Below, in pieces: positions 4,083 to 40,948 of a stretch of 45,340 bases of DNA (positions within the stretch are counted from its first letter, which is position 1; each line of letters opens with the position of its first letter). The DNA is taken from the IMG/VR virus record IMGVR_UViG_2537561977_000033; one strand, 5' to 3'. The notes beneath the pieces were generated by a model that saw only the letters and a program-made list of their open reading frames with translations, ran no database searches and was not told the origin of the DNA. The DNA comes from a virus. Lineage: Duplodnaviria > Heunggongvirae > Uroviricota > Caudoviricetes. The position numbers and the translations under genes are program-made.

Positions 4083-4658
4083 CTACGGCAGTGCTGGCCA
4101 TTCAATATCCTGTGCAGTTGACGTATCAACACGGTTCAGCAATACCCGATACTTTTTCCATGCTTCCAGCAACGAGATTTCTTCCTCCGTTGCAATTTCC
4201 AGATCTGCAGCATCCTGAAGCGGCGCAATATGCTCACTGGCTACCTGCATCAGGTTGTTTTTTGTTTCTTCCGCCTCCCGGATCCGGAACAGTTTTTCTG
4301 CTTCCGTATCCTTCACCCAGGCTGTGCCGTTCCACTTCTGAAACTCCCCTTCCGGCGATAACCAGGTAACATTTTCCGGTAACGGACCGAGTTCAGAAAT
4401 AAATAACGCGTCGCCGGAAGCCACGTCATAAACCGTTTTACCCCGATGATCTTCAACGAGATGCCACGATGACTCATCACTGTTGAAAACAGCCACGAAG
4501 CCAGCCGGAATATCTGGCGGTGCAATATCGGTACTGTTTGCTGGCAGACCTGTATGAGGCGGAATATATGCATCACCTTCACCAATAAATTCATTAGTTC
4601 CGGCCAGCAGATTATAAATTTTTATGGTCCGTGGTTGTTCACTCATTCTGAATGCCAT
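4083..4658 (-). CDS. tfa: tail fiber assembly protein, 191 aa
   Basis: Immediately downstream of the fiber gene with start/stop overlap at 4656-4660; sequence matches remembered TfaQ/lambda Tfa. Confidence 0.8.
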
Positions 4659-26340: not shown

Positions 26341-26656
26341 ACTACCACTGCTGGTTCAGAGTTAAAAAAACTATGATTTTTTCATGATGTTACCGTAGTA
26401 TGTGAGTATCCATCGAATAGACACCAAGCAAAAAAGCTCCCGAAGGAGCCTTCATTTTCACTTTTTTAAATCCAACGACAGACGGCTGGCATTTAAGTAT
26501 TGTGAAATATTATCAAATGTAATCATCATTGATTTACAAAAGATACATTTTGCCCCGAAAGGATTCATGTCAGAAACATCAAAAGATGATGTTCTATACT
26601 GGGAACCATGACAACACGGGCATCTAAAGTGAATATGGTTTGTAATATTGTCTACC

Positions 26657-26869
26657 TCAAAGCGCCACTACATGAACAGCGGCAGGACCTTTAGGTCCGT
26701 TCTCAATACCAAATTCAACTTCCTGATTCTCAGTTAATGTTTTGAAATCGTTGCTCTGAATTGCTGAGAAATGGACAAACACATCTTTGCTGCCATCTTT
26801 CGGCGTGATGAAACCAAAACCTTTTTCAGGGTTAAACCATTTCACTAAACCAGTCATTTTGTTAGACAT
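26657..26869 (-). CDS. cspI: cold-shock protein (CspA family), 70 aa
   Basis: [38 protein letters not shown]... with RNP1/RNP2 motifs; matches my memory of CspI. Confidence 0.8.
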
Positions 26870-27230
26870 AATTATTACCTTTTGAAGAAATTAGCCCTTG
26901 GGCAGAATGGTCCGAAAAAAATATCAGAGAGAAAAACCAACAAGGAAATCTCAAGAGGTACAAATAATAAAATTATAACAATGACTGCTTCAGATAAATT
27001 TGTAACAAACCAGAACACCATTAACGCATGATTAACCACCCATAGCAAGGATTACTTTTGTAAAGAAAAACACAGCAATGAAAGAATAGCTTTATTTATT
27101 AATAAAACGTGTCATTCTGATTAAGACCTTTTATCTTACCCTTAAGATTTCAGGAATTTTGGCTCATGGAAGAGTCCTTTTTATTCAAATTTTACATTCC
27201 GCGATGTAAATGTTCCGATTTAATATTACC

Positions 27231-29175: not shown

Positions 29176-29537
29176 TTGATTTTATTAGTAACAAGTATTT
29201 TTATATTTTAATAATATATTTAAAGCAGATAATAAAAAACCCGCCTGAGCGGGTTTGAGATTGTGGTGCTTTTTGTGGGAGTCATCCACTTACGCACTTT
29301 GTTTTGCCATGCCAGCAGTTAGCTTCTGCTGTAAAACTATTCATGCAGCAAACCTGCACTTCACCACAATGGTTAGCATACTTTTCCTGATTAAGATTTT
29401 GCCAAATATGCTAGCCATTGTTTCATGTATTGGACCTCCTTACTTTTTATTAAAGAGATCCAATATTCACTACTCTGTCCGTATCTCTACTCAGGCATCA
29501 GCCTTCTTCGTTATCGTATACAGACGAGCGATGAATT

Positions 29538-29753
29538 TTAATCAGTAATGATGACATTTGCTGCTGCAGGACCTTTAGCACCACTCTCTATAGAGAAGGT
29601 AACCTTTTGACCTTCAAATAAGGTTCGATAATTATCATTCTGAATCGCAGAAAAATGCACAAACACATCTTTACTACCATCAACAGGAGAAATAAAGCCG
29701 AAACCTTTATCAGCGTTAAACCATTTTACTAAACCAGTCATTTTATTTGACAT
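29538..29753 (-). CDS. cspB: cold-shock protein (CspA family), 71 aa
   Basis: [51 protein letters not shown]... matches my memory of CspB. Confidence 0.8.
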
Positions 29754-30052
29754 TCTACATTCCTTAACTTGAGCCTTTCGGCATAAATGGTTTGCATAAC
29801 AGAAACGACTTCGTACTTAATTGGAGAGACTCAAAGAAGGAATAAGTGAATAACACCTGAAATGAGAACTGCTTTAGTAAACTACTTCGTATATCGTCTG
29901 TTCTTCAAACCGACGCAATCATTAACGCATAGTTGAACATATGAAGCAATGTTTATTTTAGACATCCAGCCGTCTTCAACCCCATCAAAAACTATAGCTT
30001 TCTTCAGGAACGTGTGTATAGTGCGCCAAGTTATCAGTATTAAGGAATTTTT

Positions 30053-32848: not shown

Positions 32849-33100
32849 TTATTCTCCTGAAAAAGCAGAAAAGCCAGCTTTTATTCCGATCTCTTTCAAT
32901 GCCTGTAATGAAGTGACAAACTCACCTTCGCGCAAGATAAATCCGTCCGTGACCCGAGCATCCACAAAATTAATTAACGCAGCCCCATTCTTTCGCAAAC
33001 ACATAATGCGGTAATGACTAACAAGATTTCCATTTTCAACGCACACAGCATAGAGGCCATCTTCACAAAAAATTTTACGCAGTTCTTCGATGTTCATCAT
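32849..33100 (-). CDS. hypothetical protein, 83 aa (possibly Rem by position and length)
   Basis: MMNIEELRKIFCEDGLYAVCVENG...; symbol not assigned because I cannot recall the Rem sequence. Confidence 0.35.
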   Translation of the reverse strand: MMNIEELRKIFCEDGLYAVCVENGNLVSHYRIMCLRKNGAALINFVDARVTDGFILREGEFVTSLQALKEIGIKAGFSAFSGE

Positions 33101-37201: not shown

Positions 37202-38221
37202 TTATCCCCTGAAACCAGGCGGAATTTCTGTATCCGGTTCAGAAATATGATTCACACAACGCTGTACAGGTGAACGTCCCAGGCGGATGACCAGTTCGTC
37301 CCATTTTTCGCGGAGTTTTGACGGGCTCATGATGTTTTTTACCCAGAATTGATCTCGCTGTACCCGACCAAACATTTCGCAAATTTGTCTGTGGCTTCTG
37401 CCATCCAGCATCCGCATTGTGCGCACGTCATTGGCCCAGGCTGTCCAGTTAGGCTCTTTTGGTCGCATGATCTCTCCATCGTCGCTGGCAGCCTGTTCGT
37501 AAAGGTTCACGATCCGCCCCCAAATCCACTGCGCACACGCCAAATCCTCCCTGCTACCCCACTGGCGTTTTTTCGCACTAAACACAACCGCGTCGGGGTT
37601 CCGGGTTAAAAAATCCTGTTCAGCGGTCTGCGGGTCCGGTTGCGAAGCTTCCGGACGAAAAGTGTTTTTATTCTCTGTAGTAATCTCTGTTGTATTCTCT
37701 GTAAGATCATCAGGCCATTTTGACCCGATGACATTGGGTCGTTTTGAACCAATGGAGCGTTTCATTTTGACCTCTTCCATCGTGTCATTTTGACCTGATG
37801 GAGCGGCGCATTTTAAACCGATGGATTCGCTCAATTTGCCACCATCTAAAAGCTCGCTCCCGTAGTTGATCGTGTAGAAATTGGTCATATCGCGCTTTGA
37901 TTTATTGAGCTTTTCACAACGCAAAAGCCCCAGCGTTTTCAGACTTGCAAACGCGCGCTTTAACGTTGACTCTGACCAGAATGGGAACTGTTCCAGCCAT
38001 TGTTCCGTTGTGTTGTAAATCCAGCGAACACCATCACATTCCATGCCGGAATTGGTATCTCTCAACCAGTAATGCAACTGCTGCAACACAATGGCTTCAT
38101 TTAAGCCAATCTTCATCGCAAGCTGTGTGTTTATAACCAGTGGGCGTTCAGCAAAAAGAAGGCTCATAATTCCATCCAGCTTTTTGTTGGTATTGCTGTC
38201 GATACGCAAGTTTGAAAGCAA
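37202..38221 (-). CDS. putative replication initiation / replisome organizer protein, 339 aa
   Basis: Position downstream of cro-like dicC, corresponding to the lambda O/P position; no confident family match by eye. Confidence 0.35.
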   Translation of the reverse strand: MLSNLRIDSNTNKKLDGIMSLLFAERPLVINTQLAMKIGLNEAIVLQQLHYWLRDTNSGMECDGVRWIYNTTEQWLEQFPFWSESTLKRAFASLKTLGLLRCEKLNKSKRDMTNFYTINYGSELLDGGKLSESIGLKCAAPSGQNDTMEEVKMKRSIGSKRPNVIGSKWPDDLTENTTEITTENKNTFRPEASQPDPQTAEQDFLTRNPDAVVFSAKKRQWGSREDLACAQWIWGRIVNLYEQAASDDGEIMRPKEPNWTAWANDVRTMRMLDGRSHRQICEMFGRVQRDQFWVKNIMSPSKLREKWDELVIRLGRSPVQRCVNHISEPDTEIPPGFRG

Positions 38222-38669
38222 TTGCTTTTTCTATAAGTTCGTCAGTTTCACGATCCACTACGGCAGGATCAGCAAAAAGCAGTCCGGACTCCACCACATC
38301 GCCATATTCTTTGTTTAACCCGGCGATCATGTACGTGATGCTTTTTCCGTCACTAATTTCACGATACAACCTGAAATCATTAATCCGAATAGCCTCCATA
38401 ATTGCAGGCACTAGCGCCGTGAACTTTTCACGCTTATCCCTGGTGTCGATAGCCTTCCAGCGTTCGAATATCTTCACTCGATTAACGCCAAGTGCTCGCT
38501 GATCAACCGCGCCACCTTCATCTGTGACACGCTGAACATCGATGTTCGGGCGCTCTTTCAAAGCCCAGAATGCTTCTGTGATTAATATCGTCGCCTGCTC
38601 CTGTGTCATTCCTGGTCGACATATCCAGGCATCCAGAGCCTCACGAGCCTGTTCAGGAGTGATTTTCAT
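38148..38669 (-). CDS. hypothetical early protein, 173 aa (cII/YdaT position)
   Basis: First gene after dicC in the same operon; overlaps the dicC 3' end by 17 bp. Confidence 0.35.
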   Translation of the reverse strand: MKITPEQAREALDAWICRPGMTQEQATILITEAFWALKERPNIDVQRVTDEGGAVDQRALGVNRVKIFERWKAIDTRDKREKFTALVPAIMEAIRINDFRLYREISDGKSITYMIAGLNKEYGDVVESGLLFADPAVVDRETDELIEKAIAFKLAYRQQYQQKAGWNYEPSFC

Positions 38670-38883
38670 TGTTCAACCGCCCCGCCCGCTTCGTCTTACG
38701 ATATTCATCATAAACTTTGGGATCATACTGAAGCTCCCCGCCAGATGCCTCCTGTAGACGCATCGCGCGACCTTCGGGAACTAAATCCCCTTTCCAGCTA
38801 TAAAGCGAAGCCAAACGAATACCTGCTGCTTGTGCAAGTTTTGTTTTTGAACCGAAATACAAAAGAGCGTCAGTTTTAAGCAT
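38653..38883 (-). CDS. dicC: Cro-like repressor DicC, 76 aa
   Basis: MLKTDALLYFGSKTKLAQAAGIRLASLYSWKGDLVPEGRAMRLQEASGGELQYDPKVYDEYRK... matches DicC; divergent from dicA. Confidence 0.8.
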   Translation of the reverse strand: MLKTDALLYFGSKTKLAQAAGIRLASLYSWKGDLVPEGRAMRLQEASGGELQYDPKVYDEYRKTKRAGRLNNENHS

Positions 38884-38900
38884 TTAAAACACCTTTATTG

Positions 38901-38966
38901 TTAGTCATAACTAACAAGATAGATGTTAACAAAAACATAGTCAATACGATTTAGCATTAGCTAACT
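38901..38966. promoter_or_regulatory. dicA/dicC intergenic operators (two TTAG...CTAA palindromes)
   Basis: TTAGTCATAACTAACA (38901-38916) and TTAGCATTAGCTAACT (38951-38966) between the divergent repressor genes. Confidence 0.5.
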
Positions 38967-39374
38967 ATGGAAACAAAAAATTTAACTATCGGCGAACGCA
39001 TCAGGTATCGTCGGAAAAACCTCAAACACACCCAAAGGTCTCTTGCTAAAGCCCTGAAAATCTCCCATGTGTCTGTATCACAATGGGAACGGGGTGATAG
39101 TGAACCTACAGGGAAGAACCTTTTTGCCCTCAGCAAAGTATTGCAATGCTCACCAACATGGATTCTATTTGGCGATGAAGACAAGCAACCAACACCACCT
39201 GTTGAGAAGCCAGTTGCCTTATCCCCCAAAGAACTAGAGCTCCTTGAGCTGTTTAATGCACTGCCAGAATCAGAACAGGATACCCAGCTCGCCGAAATGC
39301 GAGCTCGAGTAAAAAACTTCAATAAACTCTTTGAAGAATTACTAAAAGCCCGTCAGCGGACAAATAAAAGATAA
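38967..39374 (+). CDS. dicA: XRE-family repressor DicA, 135 aa
   Basis: METKNLTIGERIRYRRKNLKHTQRSLAKALKISHVSVSQWERGDSEPTGKNLFALSKVLQCSPTWILFGDED... matches DicA. Confidence 0.9.
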   Translation: METKNLTIGERIRYRRKNLKHTQRSLAKALKISHVSVSQWERGDSEPTGKNLFALSKVLQCSPTWILFGDEDKQPTPPVEKPVALSPKELELLELFNALPESEQDTQLAEMRARVKNFNKLFEELLKARQRTNKR

Positions 39375-39409
39375 CATCATCAATGAGTTATCTTTTACCA
39401 CATCAATTA

Positions 39410-39463
39410 TGTTAGCTATAGCATACAAAATCACTTGACCGATATGTTAGTCATAGCTAATCT
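39410..39463 (+). promoter_or_regulatory. dicB-operon promoter with overlapping DicA operator-like palindromes
   Basis: TTGACC (39435-39440), 17-nt spacer containing TGTTAGTCATAGC, TAATCT (39458-39463); second palindrome TTAGCTATAGCATA at 39412-39425. Confidence 0.5.
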
Positions 39464-39540
39464 TGTTTGCATCAACACACCGCACGGTGTTCTCAGCAAA
39501 CAGTTCCGCTACCCCAGCGTTAAGGGGAAATGAGGTCAGC

Positions 39541-39696
39541 ATGGATACTATCGATCTTGGCAACAACGAATCTCTGGTGTACGGCGTGTTTCCAAACCAG
39601 GACGGCACGTTCACCGCAATGACGTATACCAAAAGCAAAACGTTTAAAACCGAAAATGGTGCCCGTCGCTGGCTGGAAAGAAACTCAGGTGAGTGA
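39541..39696 (+). CDS. ydfA: YdfA, 51 aa
   Basis: MDTIDLGNNESLVYGVFPNQDGTFTAMTYTKSKTFKTENGARRWLERNSGE. Confidence 0.7.
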   Translation: MDTIDLGNNESLVYGVFPNQDGTFTAMTYTKSKTFKTENGARRWLERNSGE

Positions 39697-39697
39697 T

Positions 39698-40273
39698 ATG
39701 GATTTCGACACAATCATGGAAAAGGCTTACGAAGAATACTTCGAAGGCCTTGCCGAAGGCGAAGAAGCTCTCAGCTTCAGTGAGTTTAAACAGGCACTCA
39801 GAATAAGAATGTGCTCTCACAATGACGCGGAGCACAAATATGAGAAGCAAAATCAGACCGCAGGAAATTTTGTTCTGGAACCCGGAGAAACGCTTTTCAA
39901 AATTCCCGTTACGTGCCCCATTTGCGGTTTTACATCAGAAGAACTTGACGACTCCTGTAACAATCAGGAAACAACCAAGTATGTCGAAGATGATACCGAG
40001 TGCGCACGAAGAACGATTATATCCACGAGTCCAAACTCCAGGACCAATAAATCTCACTATGAGAGGGTGATTAATCCACTCCCCCAAACCAATAAAAAAG
40101 ATGCCGGAGGACAAAAAACCCAATGGAACAACGGGATATCTGTCAAAAAAAGACGTTCCATTAAAGACAAACAACGCAGCGCCAACAACTGTAAGCGCTT
40201 TATACCAGTAATCAATTTTCATGTTCTTAAGCGGATTTATTGGTGGTTGCGACATTGCTTAATGAATCCTTAA
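39698..40273 (+). CDS. 191-aa ORF covering the region K-12 splits into ydfB and ydfC; contains a CPICGF zinc-finger-like motif
   Basis: Starts MDFDTIMEKAYEEYFEGLAEGEEALSFSEFKQAL... and continues uninterrupted to 40273. Confidence 0.4.
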   Translation: MDFDTIMEKAYEEYFEGLAEGEEALSFSEFKQALRIRMCSHNDAEHKYEKQNQTAGNFVLEPGETLFKIPVTCPICGFTSEELDDSCNNQETTKYVEDDTECARRTIISTSPNSRTNKSHYERVINPLPQTNKKDAGGQKTQWNNGISVKKRRSIKDKQRSANNCKRFIPVINFHVLKRIYWWLRHCLMNP

Positions 40274-40532
40274 AACTGTGGTGATTTTAAGGATACCACC
40301 TCGCCTGACGTGGTTAAAAGCAGGCACACAACACGAAAGCGCACGGCGAAGTTCGTCTCACTGTACGGTGTCGTTAAATTTAATTCGACCGTGCGCTTCC
40401 GGTTGTGGCAACCCGCAAAATGGCGCGGCGGTAAGTATGGCGGGGTTATTCCTTCCCCGTTGAGGACACCGGGTTGTCAGGTTGACCATACGCTTAAGTG
40501 ACAACCCCGCTGCAACGCCCTCTGTTATCAAT

Positions 40533-40585
40533 TTTCTGGTGACGTTTGGCGGTATCAGTTTTACTCCGTGACTGCTCTGCCGCCC
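40533..40585 (+). ncRNA. dicF: DicF small regulatory RNA (ftsZ-targeting), ~53 nt, followed by a T-run
   Basis: TTTCTGGTGACGTTTGGCGGTATCAGTTTTACTCCGTGACTGCTCTGCCGCCC matches the DicF sequence as I remember it; between the ydfB/C region and dicB. Confidence 0.8.
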
Positions 40586-40759
40586 TTTTTAAAGTGAATT
40601 TTGTGATGCGGTGAATACGGCTAAGCGCACGCGGAACAGTTAAAACCAAAAACAGTGTTATGGGTGGATTCTCTGTATCCGACGTTAATTGTTAACTGGT
40701 TAACGTCACCTGGAGGCACCAGGCACTGCATCACAAAATTCATTGTTGAGGACGCGATA

Positions 40760-40948
40760 ATGAAAACGTTATTACCAAACGTTAATACGTCTGAAGGTTG
40801 TTTTGAAATTGGTGTCACTATCAGTAACCCTGTATTTACTGAAGATGCCATTAACAAGAGAAAACAAGAACGGGAGCTATTAAATAAAATATGCATTGTT
40901 TCAATGCTGGCTCGTTTACGTCTGATGCCAAAAGGATGTGCACAATGA
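40760..40948 (+). CDS. dicB: cell-division inhibitor DicB, 62 aa
   Basis: MKTLLPNVNTSEGCFEIGVTISNPVFTEDAINKRKQERELLNKICIVSMLARLRLMPKGCAQ. Confidence 0.85.
   Translation: MKTLLPNVNTSEGCFEIGVTISNPVFTEDAINKRKQERELLNKICIVSMLARLRLMPKGCAQ

Follow-up and report, generated by a model that had tools for sequence, protein, structure and literature searches.

Does the DNA between and beside the divergent genes dicC and dicA form a compact repressor/cro-like switch, and does that switch control the cell-division inhibitor operon lying beyond it? A first-pass annotation, made without database searches, had proposed both for a 45,340-nt Caudoviricetes record (IMGVR_UViG_2537561977_000033; the whole of this stretch is called the window here) and had suggested alignment with the K-12 dicA-dicC region as a check. 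Over window positions 38860–39560 the dicC-dicA-dicBp region of Escherichia coli K-12 MG1655 is identical at 699 of 701 positions, the two differences being one synonymous change in dicA and one inner base at the centre of the promoter-proximal palindrome (39455; A in the window, G in K-12). The DicA proteins are identical, gene order is the same, and collinearity with K-12 Qin spans 38390–39798 at 99.4%. The window carries the K-12 Qin dicA/dicC immunity locus, a system that is already known (b1569–b1570; Bejar et al. 1986/1988; Yun et al. 2012; Ragunathan et al. 2023), and earlier papers deal with binding at the operator Oc, with bistability, with Rem as an antirepressor, and with DicC ChIP peaks flanking dicA. 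It is essentially the same DNA: Oc, Om, Oa and the promoter hexamers do not differ, and ydfA, dicF and dicB follow downstream in both. The prophage in the window is nevertheless less decayed than K-12 Qin: its YdaT-family gene is intact, whereas K-12 carries the remnant ydfX at that place, its 823-aa exonuclease gene is intact too, and the K-12 ydfC segment is replaced by an unrelated 517 bp.

The two repressor genes are 83 bp apart and were recognized from their ORFs and from matches to HTH_3/Phage_CI_repr and P22_Cro (Table 1). The smaller one is annotated as dicC in the near-identical genomes NC_000913.3 and NZ_CP091022.1. Residues 7–71 of DicA align to the N-terminal domain of P22 C2 (E = 8e-20, phmmer against PDB), and the PDB matches 1adr, 2r1j and 3jxb range from 8e-20 to 2e-19. 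No S24 peptidase domain was found in DicA, the Pfam matches all being to helix-turn-helix, repressor or Cro-type DNA-binding domains, and it has been reported that the Ala-Gly site is missing and that the protein is insensitive to mitomycin C (PMC10448788). DicA is a member of the antirepressor-controlled class of repressors, which are without a RecA-stimulated autocleavage domain. The gene in the cII position, downstream of dicC, is annotated as a YdaT family protein in NZ_CP091022.1 and as cII in PhiR42_1, a 48.7-kb phage record that carries a nearly identical immunity module. On the other side of dicA, the genes ydfA, DicF and dicB all lie on the plus strand downstream of dicBp and are co-transcribed (PMC10448788). 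With these three genes in place, and with DicA known to repress dicBp (PMC10448788), control of the dicF-dicB operon by the switch is borne out.

Table 1. Genes, operators and promoters of the dicC-dicA-dicB region, in window coordinates
Feature	Position	Strand	Remarks
rem, antirepressor of DicA	32849..33100	-	83-aa ORF, collinear with annotated rem of NZ_CP091022.1; function from PMC10448788
YdaT-family gene, cII position, downstream of dicC	38148..38669	-	Pfam YdaT_toxin, E = 1.2e-5
dicC	38653..38883	-	76-aa Cro-like repressor; Pfam P22_Cro, E = 1.7e-11
Operator Oc, TGTTAGTCATAACTAACA	38899..38916	.	Core TTAGTCATAACTAA at 38901-38914
dicC promoter	38916..38944	-	-35 TTGACT (38944-38939), 17-nt spacer, -10 TATCTT (38921-38916)
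Degenerate middle operator Om, TGTTAACAAAAACATAGT	38924..38941	.	Core TTAA..CATA, 3 mismatches to TTAG..CTAA
Operator Oa, ATTTAGCATTAGCTAACT	38949..38966	.	Core TTAGCATTAGCTAA at 38951-38964, exact TTAGN6CTAA
dicA	38967..39374	+	135-aa CI-like repressor; Pfam HTH_3, E = 1.3e-16
Distal dicB-side operator, TGTTAGCTATAGCATACA	39410..39427	.	Core TTAGCTATAGCATA at 39412-39425; two mismatches to 18-mer consensus
dicB-operon promoter dicBp (predicted)	39435..39463	+	-35 TTGACC 39435-39440; spacer 39441-39457 (17 nt); -10 TAATCT 39458-39463
Promoter-proximal operator, TGTTAGTCATAGCTAATC	39445..39462	.	Core TTAGTCATAGCTAA at 39447-39460, exact TTAGN6CTAA; in spacer and first -10 bases
Predicted dicB-operon leader	39471..39540	+	CATCRA start region; hairpin 39477-39490; small hairpin 39507-39519
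ydfA	39541..39696	+	First gene of dicB operon; Pfam DUF1391, E = 1.7e-28; annotated in near-identical genomes
DicF small RNA	40534..40585	+	Rfam RF00039, 76.7 bits vs gathering score 48
dicB, cell-division inhibitor	40760..40948	+	Pfam DicB, E = 1.9e-40, full length

Between dicC and dicA the first-pass annotation had seen two palindromes, and both are present, as the cores of Oc and Oa. Exact matches to TTAGN6CTAA number three in the 45,340 bp, against 0.31 expected, and all of them fall inside 560 bp. The 18-mer TGTTAG-N6-CTAACA with up to two mismatches likewise has three matches in the window, all in the immunity region. At three mismatches the 15 matches found are noise (14.7 expected), and no further sites can be claimed elsewhere in the window; support for Oa therefore comes from its 14-bp core and its conservation rather than from the 18-mer. 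The sequence at 38898–38917 is an exact match to the published 20-mer of the DicA operator Oc (TTGTTAGTCATAACTAACAA; PMC3441716). Oc abuts or overlaps the -10 of the dicC promoter and spans the region of its start site. This promoter has 9 of 12 consensus matches in a promoter scan, its start site as mapped by 5'RACE is consistent with the -10 TATCTT (Yun 2012, PMC3441716), and homologues from Citrobacter and Serratia conserve the -35 and retain a -10 of the form TAnnTT.

A fifth site, absent from the first-pass annotation, is the degenerate Om, whose centre is 25 bp from the centres of both Oc and Oa. Its presence in the window agrees with the Oc/Om/Oa naming in the literature (PMC3441716), and the equivalent position holds a one-mismatch site in lineages L163–L165 (TGTTAACAATAACTAAGT) and in the PPompW type (TCGTAGAGAAACCTAAGT). 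Oa has the inner sequence CATTAG, not YYATRR, and flanks reading ATTTAG..CTAACT, and its centre is invariant, unlike those of the other operators. No Shine-Dalgarno sequence is present between the end of Oa and the adjoining dicA ATG, and a relaxed scan found no convincing sigma-70 promoter for dicA, in agreement with Yun 2012 and Reg-Seq. Set against the three operators per control region of a lambdoid switch, the OR-like side thus described has strong Oc and Oa and, in the window, a degenerate Om; the OL-like side has no more than two recognisable sites in any lineage.

On that OL-like side, just downstream of dicA, two more palindromes had been described, together with a promoter, TTGACC-17-TAATCT, containing one of them in its spacer. 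Both palindromes lie where they had been placed, but the upstream one is imperfect, its right half being CATA where CTAA is expected; the promoter hexamers also stand, and the second palindrome does lie mostly in the spacer, but it enters the -10 by 3 nt. In other lineages the right half of the distal operator is CAAACA, CGAACA or CTAACA, and most diverged lineages have a good palindrome there, of which the window's site is a decayed, weakened copy. Its left hexamer is nearly invariant in 50 homologues, within a highly variable stretch. The consensus promoter scan missed dicBp because its -10 matches at only three of six positions. It has been placed between dicA and ydfA and described as DicA-repressed (PMC10448788); the literature searched yielded no mapped start site or footprint for it, and the Reg-Seq authors give a DicA site at dicB of unknown location. 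The -35 TTGACC is invariant in the 50 homologues, and the lineages examined from Citrobacter, Serratia, KY1497 and PPompW show TTGNNN-17-TAAnnT in an unchanged register.

The operon would start near 39471, a position that, like the exact hexamers of dicBp, we infer from sequence and conservation. The motif CATCRA lies 7–8 nt past the -10 in every lineage with a promoter-proximal operator found. In the predicted leader, a CGCY/RGCG stem shows compensatory changes; RNAalifold recovered a 4-bp hairpin alone, the upstream hairpin being lost to alignment gaps, and Rfam at permissive thresholds gave no match in the dicA-ydfA interval. The dicA stop codon is itself spanned by a perfect inverted repeat of 11 bp, an unrelated element.

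Comparison across homologues separates the fixed from the changeable parts of these sites. Eighty close homologues from IMG/VR reduce to 50 distinct 701-bp sequences of 88%–100% identity; a scan of genome contigs gave six loci, two of which (L007 and L008) proved to be distant helix-turn-helix proteins without the architecture and were dropped. In the 50 sequences the outer hexamers of Oc (TGTTAG/CTAACA) and its central AT are invariant, as are TGTTAG, the central AT and CTAA of the proximal operator, whose right hexamer, CTAATC, varies in its last two bases. Positions 7, 8, 11 and 12 and the flanks vary in Oc and in both dicB-side operators, and Oa is nearly invariant. When a column is counted as variable if at least two sequences carry the minor base, 4 of 48 half-site columns vary compared to 12 of the 24 columns in the central six positions (Fisher p = 1.4e-4, 50 unique homologues). 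The diverged homologues comprise Citrobacter (73% protein identity), Serratia (64%) and thirteen further lineages (63%–77%). In all diverged lineages Oc lies at -66 and Oa at -16 from the dicA ATG, and wherever downstream sites could be located there are two, 33–36 bp apart, the proximal one inside the spacer of a TTGNNN-17-TAAnnT promoter. The proximal operator is in the same place in every lineage with a downstream site located; dicB-side sites were not found in three loci of diverged lineages, and they are absent or incomplete in a few loci. The first-pass annotation had staked its reading on conservation of the palindromes in homologous loci, and the sites are kept across genera.

The operators also differ with the type of repressor encoded between them. 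A sister type (KY 1497, PPompW) has the same layout, a repressor of the same 135-aa family (54%–62% identity), TTAG..CTAA cores placed identically and, frequently, the same dicB operon downstream. Its recognition helix is VAHVTISQ, whereas that of DicA is ISHVSVSQ, and the flanks are CCTTAG or TCTTAG in the PPompW type. The DicA helix pairs with TTAG-Y..R-CTAA and the sister helix with TTAG-R..Y-CTAA: sister-type operators consistently carry a purine at position 7 and a pyrimidine at position 12, and the DicA type has them the other way round. We propose that this position 7/12 difference is what separates the DicA immunity type from its sister. A third arrangement has an unrelated repressor upstream of the same dicB operon, with TGTAC-type repeats at the same positions. 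The homology common to the different immunity modules starts at 39503, just past the promoter-operator block, which is where it should start if the immunity cassette includes the operators and the promoter.

The published data on the proteins can be set beside these patterns. Binding of DicA to Oc was found by an in vivo assay and by crude-extract EMSA (Yun et al., PMC3441716), and one A to C substitution in Oc abolishes it; direct DicA binding has been reported for Oc only, and the same study describes DicA-dependent repression through Oc and DicA-dependent activation of dicA. DicA represses dicBp 22-fold, as judged from the increase upon its deletion, and Rem raises dicBp 165-fold, independently of RecA; DicA and DicC together behave as a bistable switch (PMC10448788). 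ChIP-seq of DicC gave one inferred site on each side of dicA, with the palindromic motif TT[ACT]G...C[GAT]AA and a peak at the divergent promoter, and DicC induction lowers dicA 48–84-fold, while induction of dicB or dicF was not seen after DicC expression (PMC11430063). The P22 C2 domain, the P22_Cro family, the placement of the operators, and this literature (PMC6915034 is also cited in its favour) all support the proposed repressor/cro-like switch, and we are highly confident that the locus serves a Qin-type lambdoid prophage as its immunity region, organized as a P22-like two-repressor switch. Points that tell against it are the missing dicB or dicF response to DicC expression (PMC11430063), the weak -10 of dicBp and the poor right half of the distal operator in the window.

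In such a switch DicA, a CI/C2-like dimeric helix-turn-helix repressor, would bind 18-bp dyads of the form TGTTAG-YYATRR-CTAACA. At Oc it would cover the -10 edge and the start site of the leftward dicC promoter, occluding RNA polymerase and keeping dicC off, and published reporter data suggest that from the same site it would stimulate its own weak promoter. At the proximal operator, over the dicBp spacer and -10, it would exclude RNA polymerase and so keep ydfA-dicF-dicB silent, with the distal operator 35 bp upstream probably aiding occupancy. DicC would recognise the same TTAG..CTAA family and repress dicA, most plausibly via Oa, after which dicBp could fire; Oa is the natural candidate for this shut-off because it abuts an ATG that has no Shine-Dalgarno sequence. 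Since DicA is without a RecA-cleavable S24 domain, induction would proceed via Rem, encoded 6 kb away, or via spontaneous or stress-induced flipping. Occupancy of the two dicB-side sites by DicA, any cooperativity, and the share that each of Oc, Om and Oa takes in the switch are read here from operator sequence and conservation and should be taken as probable assignments.

Could the palindromes be something other than operators, that is, chance symmetry in AT-rich DNA or structural DNA or RNA hairpins such as terminators? The region is AT-rich, and the inverted repeat at the dicA stop codon is an unrelated example of perfect symmetry. The number of exact cores packed into 560 bp nevertheless far exceeds that expected in the full 45 kb, half-sites are invariant while centres and flanks vary, positions are kept across genera, operator sequence changes along with the repressor helix, and point mutations in Oc abolish DicA binding (PMC3441716), so that this idea is scarcely credible. 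Somewhat less remote, though still improbable, is that another promoter drives the dicB operon and that TTGACC/TAATCT is coincidental. In the relaxed scan of the dicA-ydfA interval dicBp shares the top score of 8/12 with TTACCA-18-TAGCAT (39395–39424), and one source cited in PMC11430063 lists extra, internal promoters upstream of dicF and dicB. However, the TTACCA region (39397–39408) is among the most variable stretches in the homologues, whereas TTGACC is invariant; those diverged lineages that were examined repeat the TTGNNN-17-TAAnnT register with an operator placed in the spacer; and Ragunathan et al. saw no evidence of other promoters and traced DicF to a transcript starting upstream of ydfA (PMC10448788).

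The allocation of sites between the two proteins allows a stronger alternative. It is quite possible, if a little short of probable, that the operators of DicA are Oc and the promoter-proximal site only, and that Oa, perhaps with the distal site and Om, consists mainly of DicC sites or of sites that depend on cooperativity, which would make the four palindromes non-equivalent. In vivo, DicA bound Oc but not isolated Om or Oa (PMC3441716); Oa stands apart in its inner bases, its flanks and its invariant centre; and DicC, whose ChIP peaks flank dicA, represses dicA strongly (PMC11430063). Against this, the negative result for Om and Oa was given as "data not shown" and concerned isolated sites, at which cooperativity is undetectable (PMC3441716), and lambdoid phages normally have every operator bound by both proteins, in differing orders of affinity. 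Given that negative result, it may be that not every palindrome need be a DicA site.

Within the two-repressor switch, the inner operator bases form a subject of their own. In Oc and both dicB-side operators, positions 7, 8, 11 and 12 are all polymorphic, through transitions only, giving YYATRR. Among 39 sequences more than 95% identical, 11 of the 12 inner positions vary, compared to 13 of 135 third-codon positions in dicA. On a tree made from the other columns there are 5.6 changes per site at inner positions, 0.36 at third-codon positions and 0.49 at other non-coding positions, an inner rate ~15-fold that of dicA synonymous sites. Of 16 inner haplotypes that are possible, Oc alone shows eight, and positions 4 bp apart yield all four gametes; in a tree-free test seven of 13 single-substitution pairs differ at the 12 inner positions, which make up 1.7% of sites. 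Replication failed in the sister (PPompW) group, where only two inner positions are strongly variable, so the hypervariability is not general to TTAG..CTAA operators. Quasipalindrome template switching found no support as a cause, perfect palindromic centres making up ~30% of haplotypes against a random expectation of 25%. A tentative explanation, which we regard as rather doubtful, is repeated selection on these largely non-contacted bases, or a repressor- or structure-induced mutational hotspot there, either of which would retune DicA/DicC affinity and the set-point of the switch. If true, natural populations would here provide a case of affinity being tuned through indirect readout, in a switch guarding toxic genes. 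The hypervariability seems not to have been described before.

The closest model outside Qin is P22 immC (c2, cro, OR/OL), which shares the C2-like N-terminal domain, the P22_Cro family, and the divergent cro-like and repressor genes. P22R uses 18-bp operators in which positions 2–7 and 12–17 are contacted and positions 8–11 are read indirectly, with ApT preferred (PMC4267663). The DicA operators are compatible with this geometry, being 18-bp dyads whose axis falls between positions 9 and 10, with unchanging outer hexamers, a constant ApT at the centre, and free variation at positions 8 and 11. The half-site, however, is TGTTAG and not of the P22 type, DicA at 135 aa has a short C-terminal domain and no autocleavage module, and in the window the OL-like side offers only two recognisable sites and the OR-like side a degenerate middle one. 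With lambda cI/cro (OR1-3, OL1-3) the locus has in common its bistable logic, a repressor that closes the early-left and cro-side promoters and activates the weak promoter of its own gene, a Cro that shuts off the repressor gene, and an OR-side operator spacing of ~25 bp. It differs from lambda in protein subfamily and operator sequence, in the absence of RecA-dependent cleavage of DicA, in the single site Oc, which appears to join repressing and activating roles, and in a dicA start codon that abuts Oa. In its mode of induction it resembles the Gifsy-type antirepressor-controlled repressors with which Ragunathan et al. (2023, PMC10448788) compared it, which undergo no SOS cleavage and are inactivated by a small antirepressor; the counterpart here is Rem, encoded at 32849–33100, and a point of difference is that Rem induces dicBp independently of RecA (PMC10448788).

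What the present comparison adds to a known system is the placement, across lineages, of the dicB-side operators and their promoter, the position 7/12 distinction, and the changeable inner operator bases. Expression of DicF and DicB from a cryptic prophage depends on this switch, and the literature on K-12 shows that the two stop cell division that relies on FtsZ, change metabolism and give protection against some phages. It bears in this way on filamentation, stress survival and the domestication of prophages.

At the dicA start (38949-38969), CTAACTATG is unvarying in all DicA-type lineages, and the gene has no Shine-Dalgarno sequence upstream of it. The best -10-like hexamer before dicA is TAGCAT (38952-38957), for which no proper -35 is present. 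If TAGCAT serves as the -10, the predicted dicA transcript would start 0-3 nt upstream of the AUG, and the repressor mRNA would be leaderless or near-leaderless, much like that of lambda cI. At the other end of the gene, the dicA stop codon falls inside the span of an inverted repeat (see table) that may act as a weak terminator or be bound by a protein; no such repeat was seen in the Citrobacter or Serratia homologue sequence compared. The 2.5-kb contig L004 (JAIIUG010000151.1), assigned by binning to a Collinsella sp. MAG, shows 98% identity to this E. coli region; mis-binning of an Enterobacterial contig is the likeliest explanation.

Features in and around the DicA/DicC switch, and RNA matches elsewhere in the window
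Feature	Position	Strand	Remarks
Hypervariable inner operator positions	38905-38906, 38909-38910, 39416-39417, 39420-39421, 39451-39452, 39455-39456		From comparison of close homologues
Inverted repeat TAAAAGATAAC ... GTTATCTTTTA	39365-39397		Perfect, 11-bp, AT-rich, 11-nt gap
dicB-operon leader	39471-39540		Hairpins 39477-39490 and 39507-39519; mosaic boundary 39503; CATCRA start region, covarying stem, TTCTCAG box, small CGCY-N5-RGCG hairpin
Unannotated hydrophobic ORF, 106 aa	39935-40255	-	Antisense within dicB operon
YdaT-family gene	38148-38669		Downstream of dicC, in cII position; intact here
cspA thermoregulator elements (two)	26630-27014, 29522-29914		Rfam gathering matches
IS009 RNA	4117-4315		Rfam gathering match

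The dicB-operon leader is conserved between genera and also between different immunity modules. Its stem arms covary (AACACC/GGTGTT versus AATCAC/GTGATT), and the small hairpin runs through the pair series T-A, T-G, C-G. In Serratia the leader is followed by a strong terminator and ydfA is missing. The leader has no Rfam match; it could be a nut-/put-like antitermination element or a stabilising leader. Immediately after DicF, and extending into the start of dicB, lies a match to the STnc100 sRNA (40583-40792; 34.6 bits, below the gathering score of 47; E = 3.4e-5). The cspA thermoregulators and IS009 RNA are unrelated to the DicA/DicC switch.

An unrelated 517 bp (39799-40315) stands in place of the K-12 ydfC segment and contains the 106-aa ORF, for which a Pfam search gave no match; ydfB is truncated. 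Homology to K-12 at the YdaT-family gene begins only at 38390, and K-12 retains there the remnant ydfX.

Among close homologues, operator positions 7, 8, 11 and 12 are hypervariable, with ~5.6 parsimony changes per site versus 0.36 at dicA third-codon sites. All of these changes are transitions; the outer hexamers and the central AT show no change at all. In 7 of 13 sequence pairs separated by a single substitution, the difference falls within the 12 inner operator positions. Replication of this hypervariability in the sister immunity group failed.

At the E. coli locus L089 (1743-2541), the same ydfA-dicB operon is preceded by an unrelated repressor with an HTH and by a gene of the AlpA family; TGTAC/GTACA-type repeats are found where DicA operators would stand, and the leader is 190 nt longer. 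Set against 38884-39540 of the window, two loci (L090:1282-1940 and L091:1732-2425) carry a sister DicA-like type, with TTAG..CTAA cores at the same positions as in the DicA type and VAHVTISQ as recognition helix. Its operators have a purine at position 7 and a pyrimidine at position 12, the reverse of the DicA type, and this opposition in sequence suggests that immunity specificity is set by operator position 7/12.
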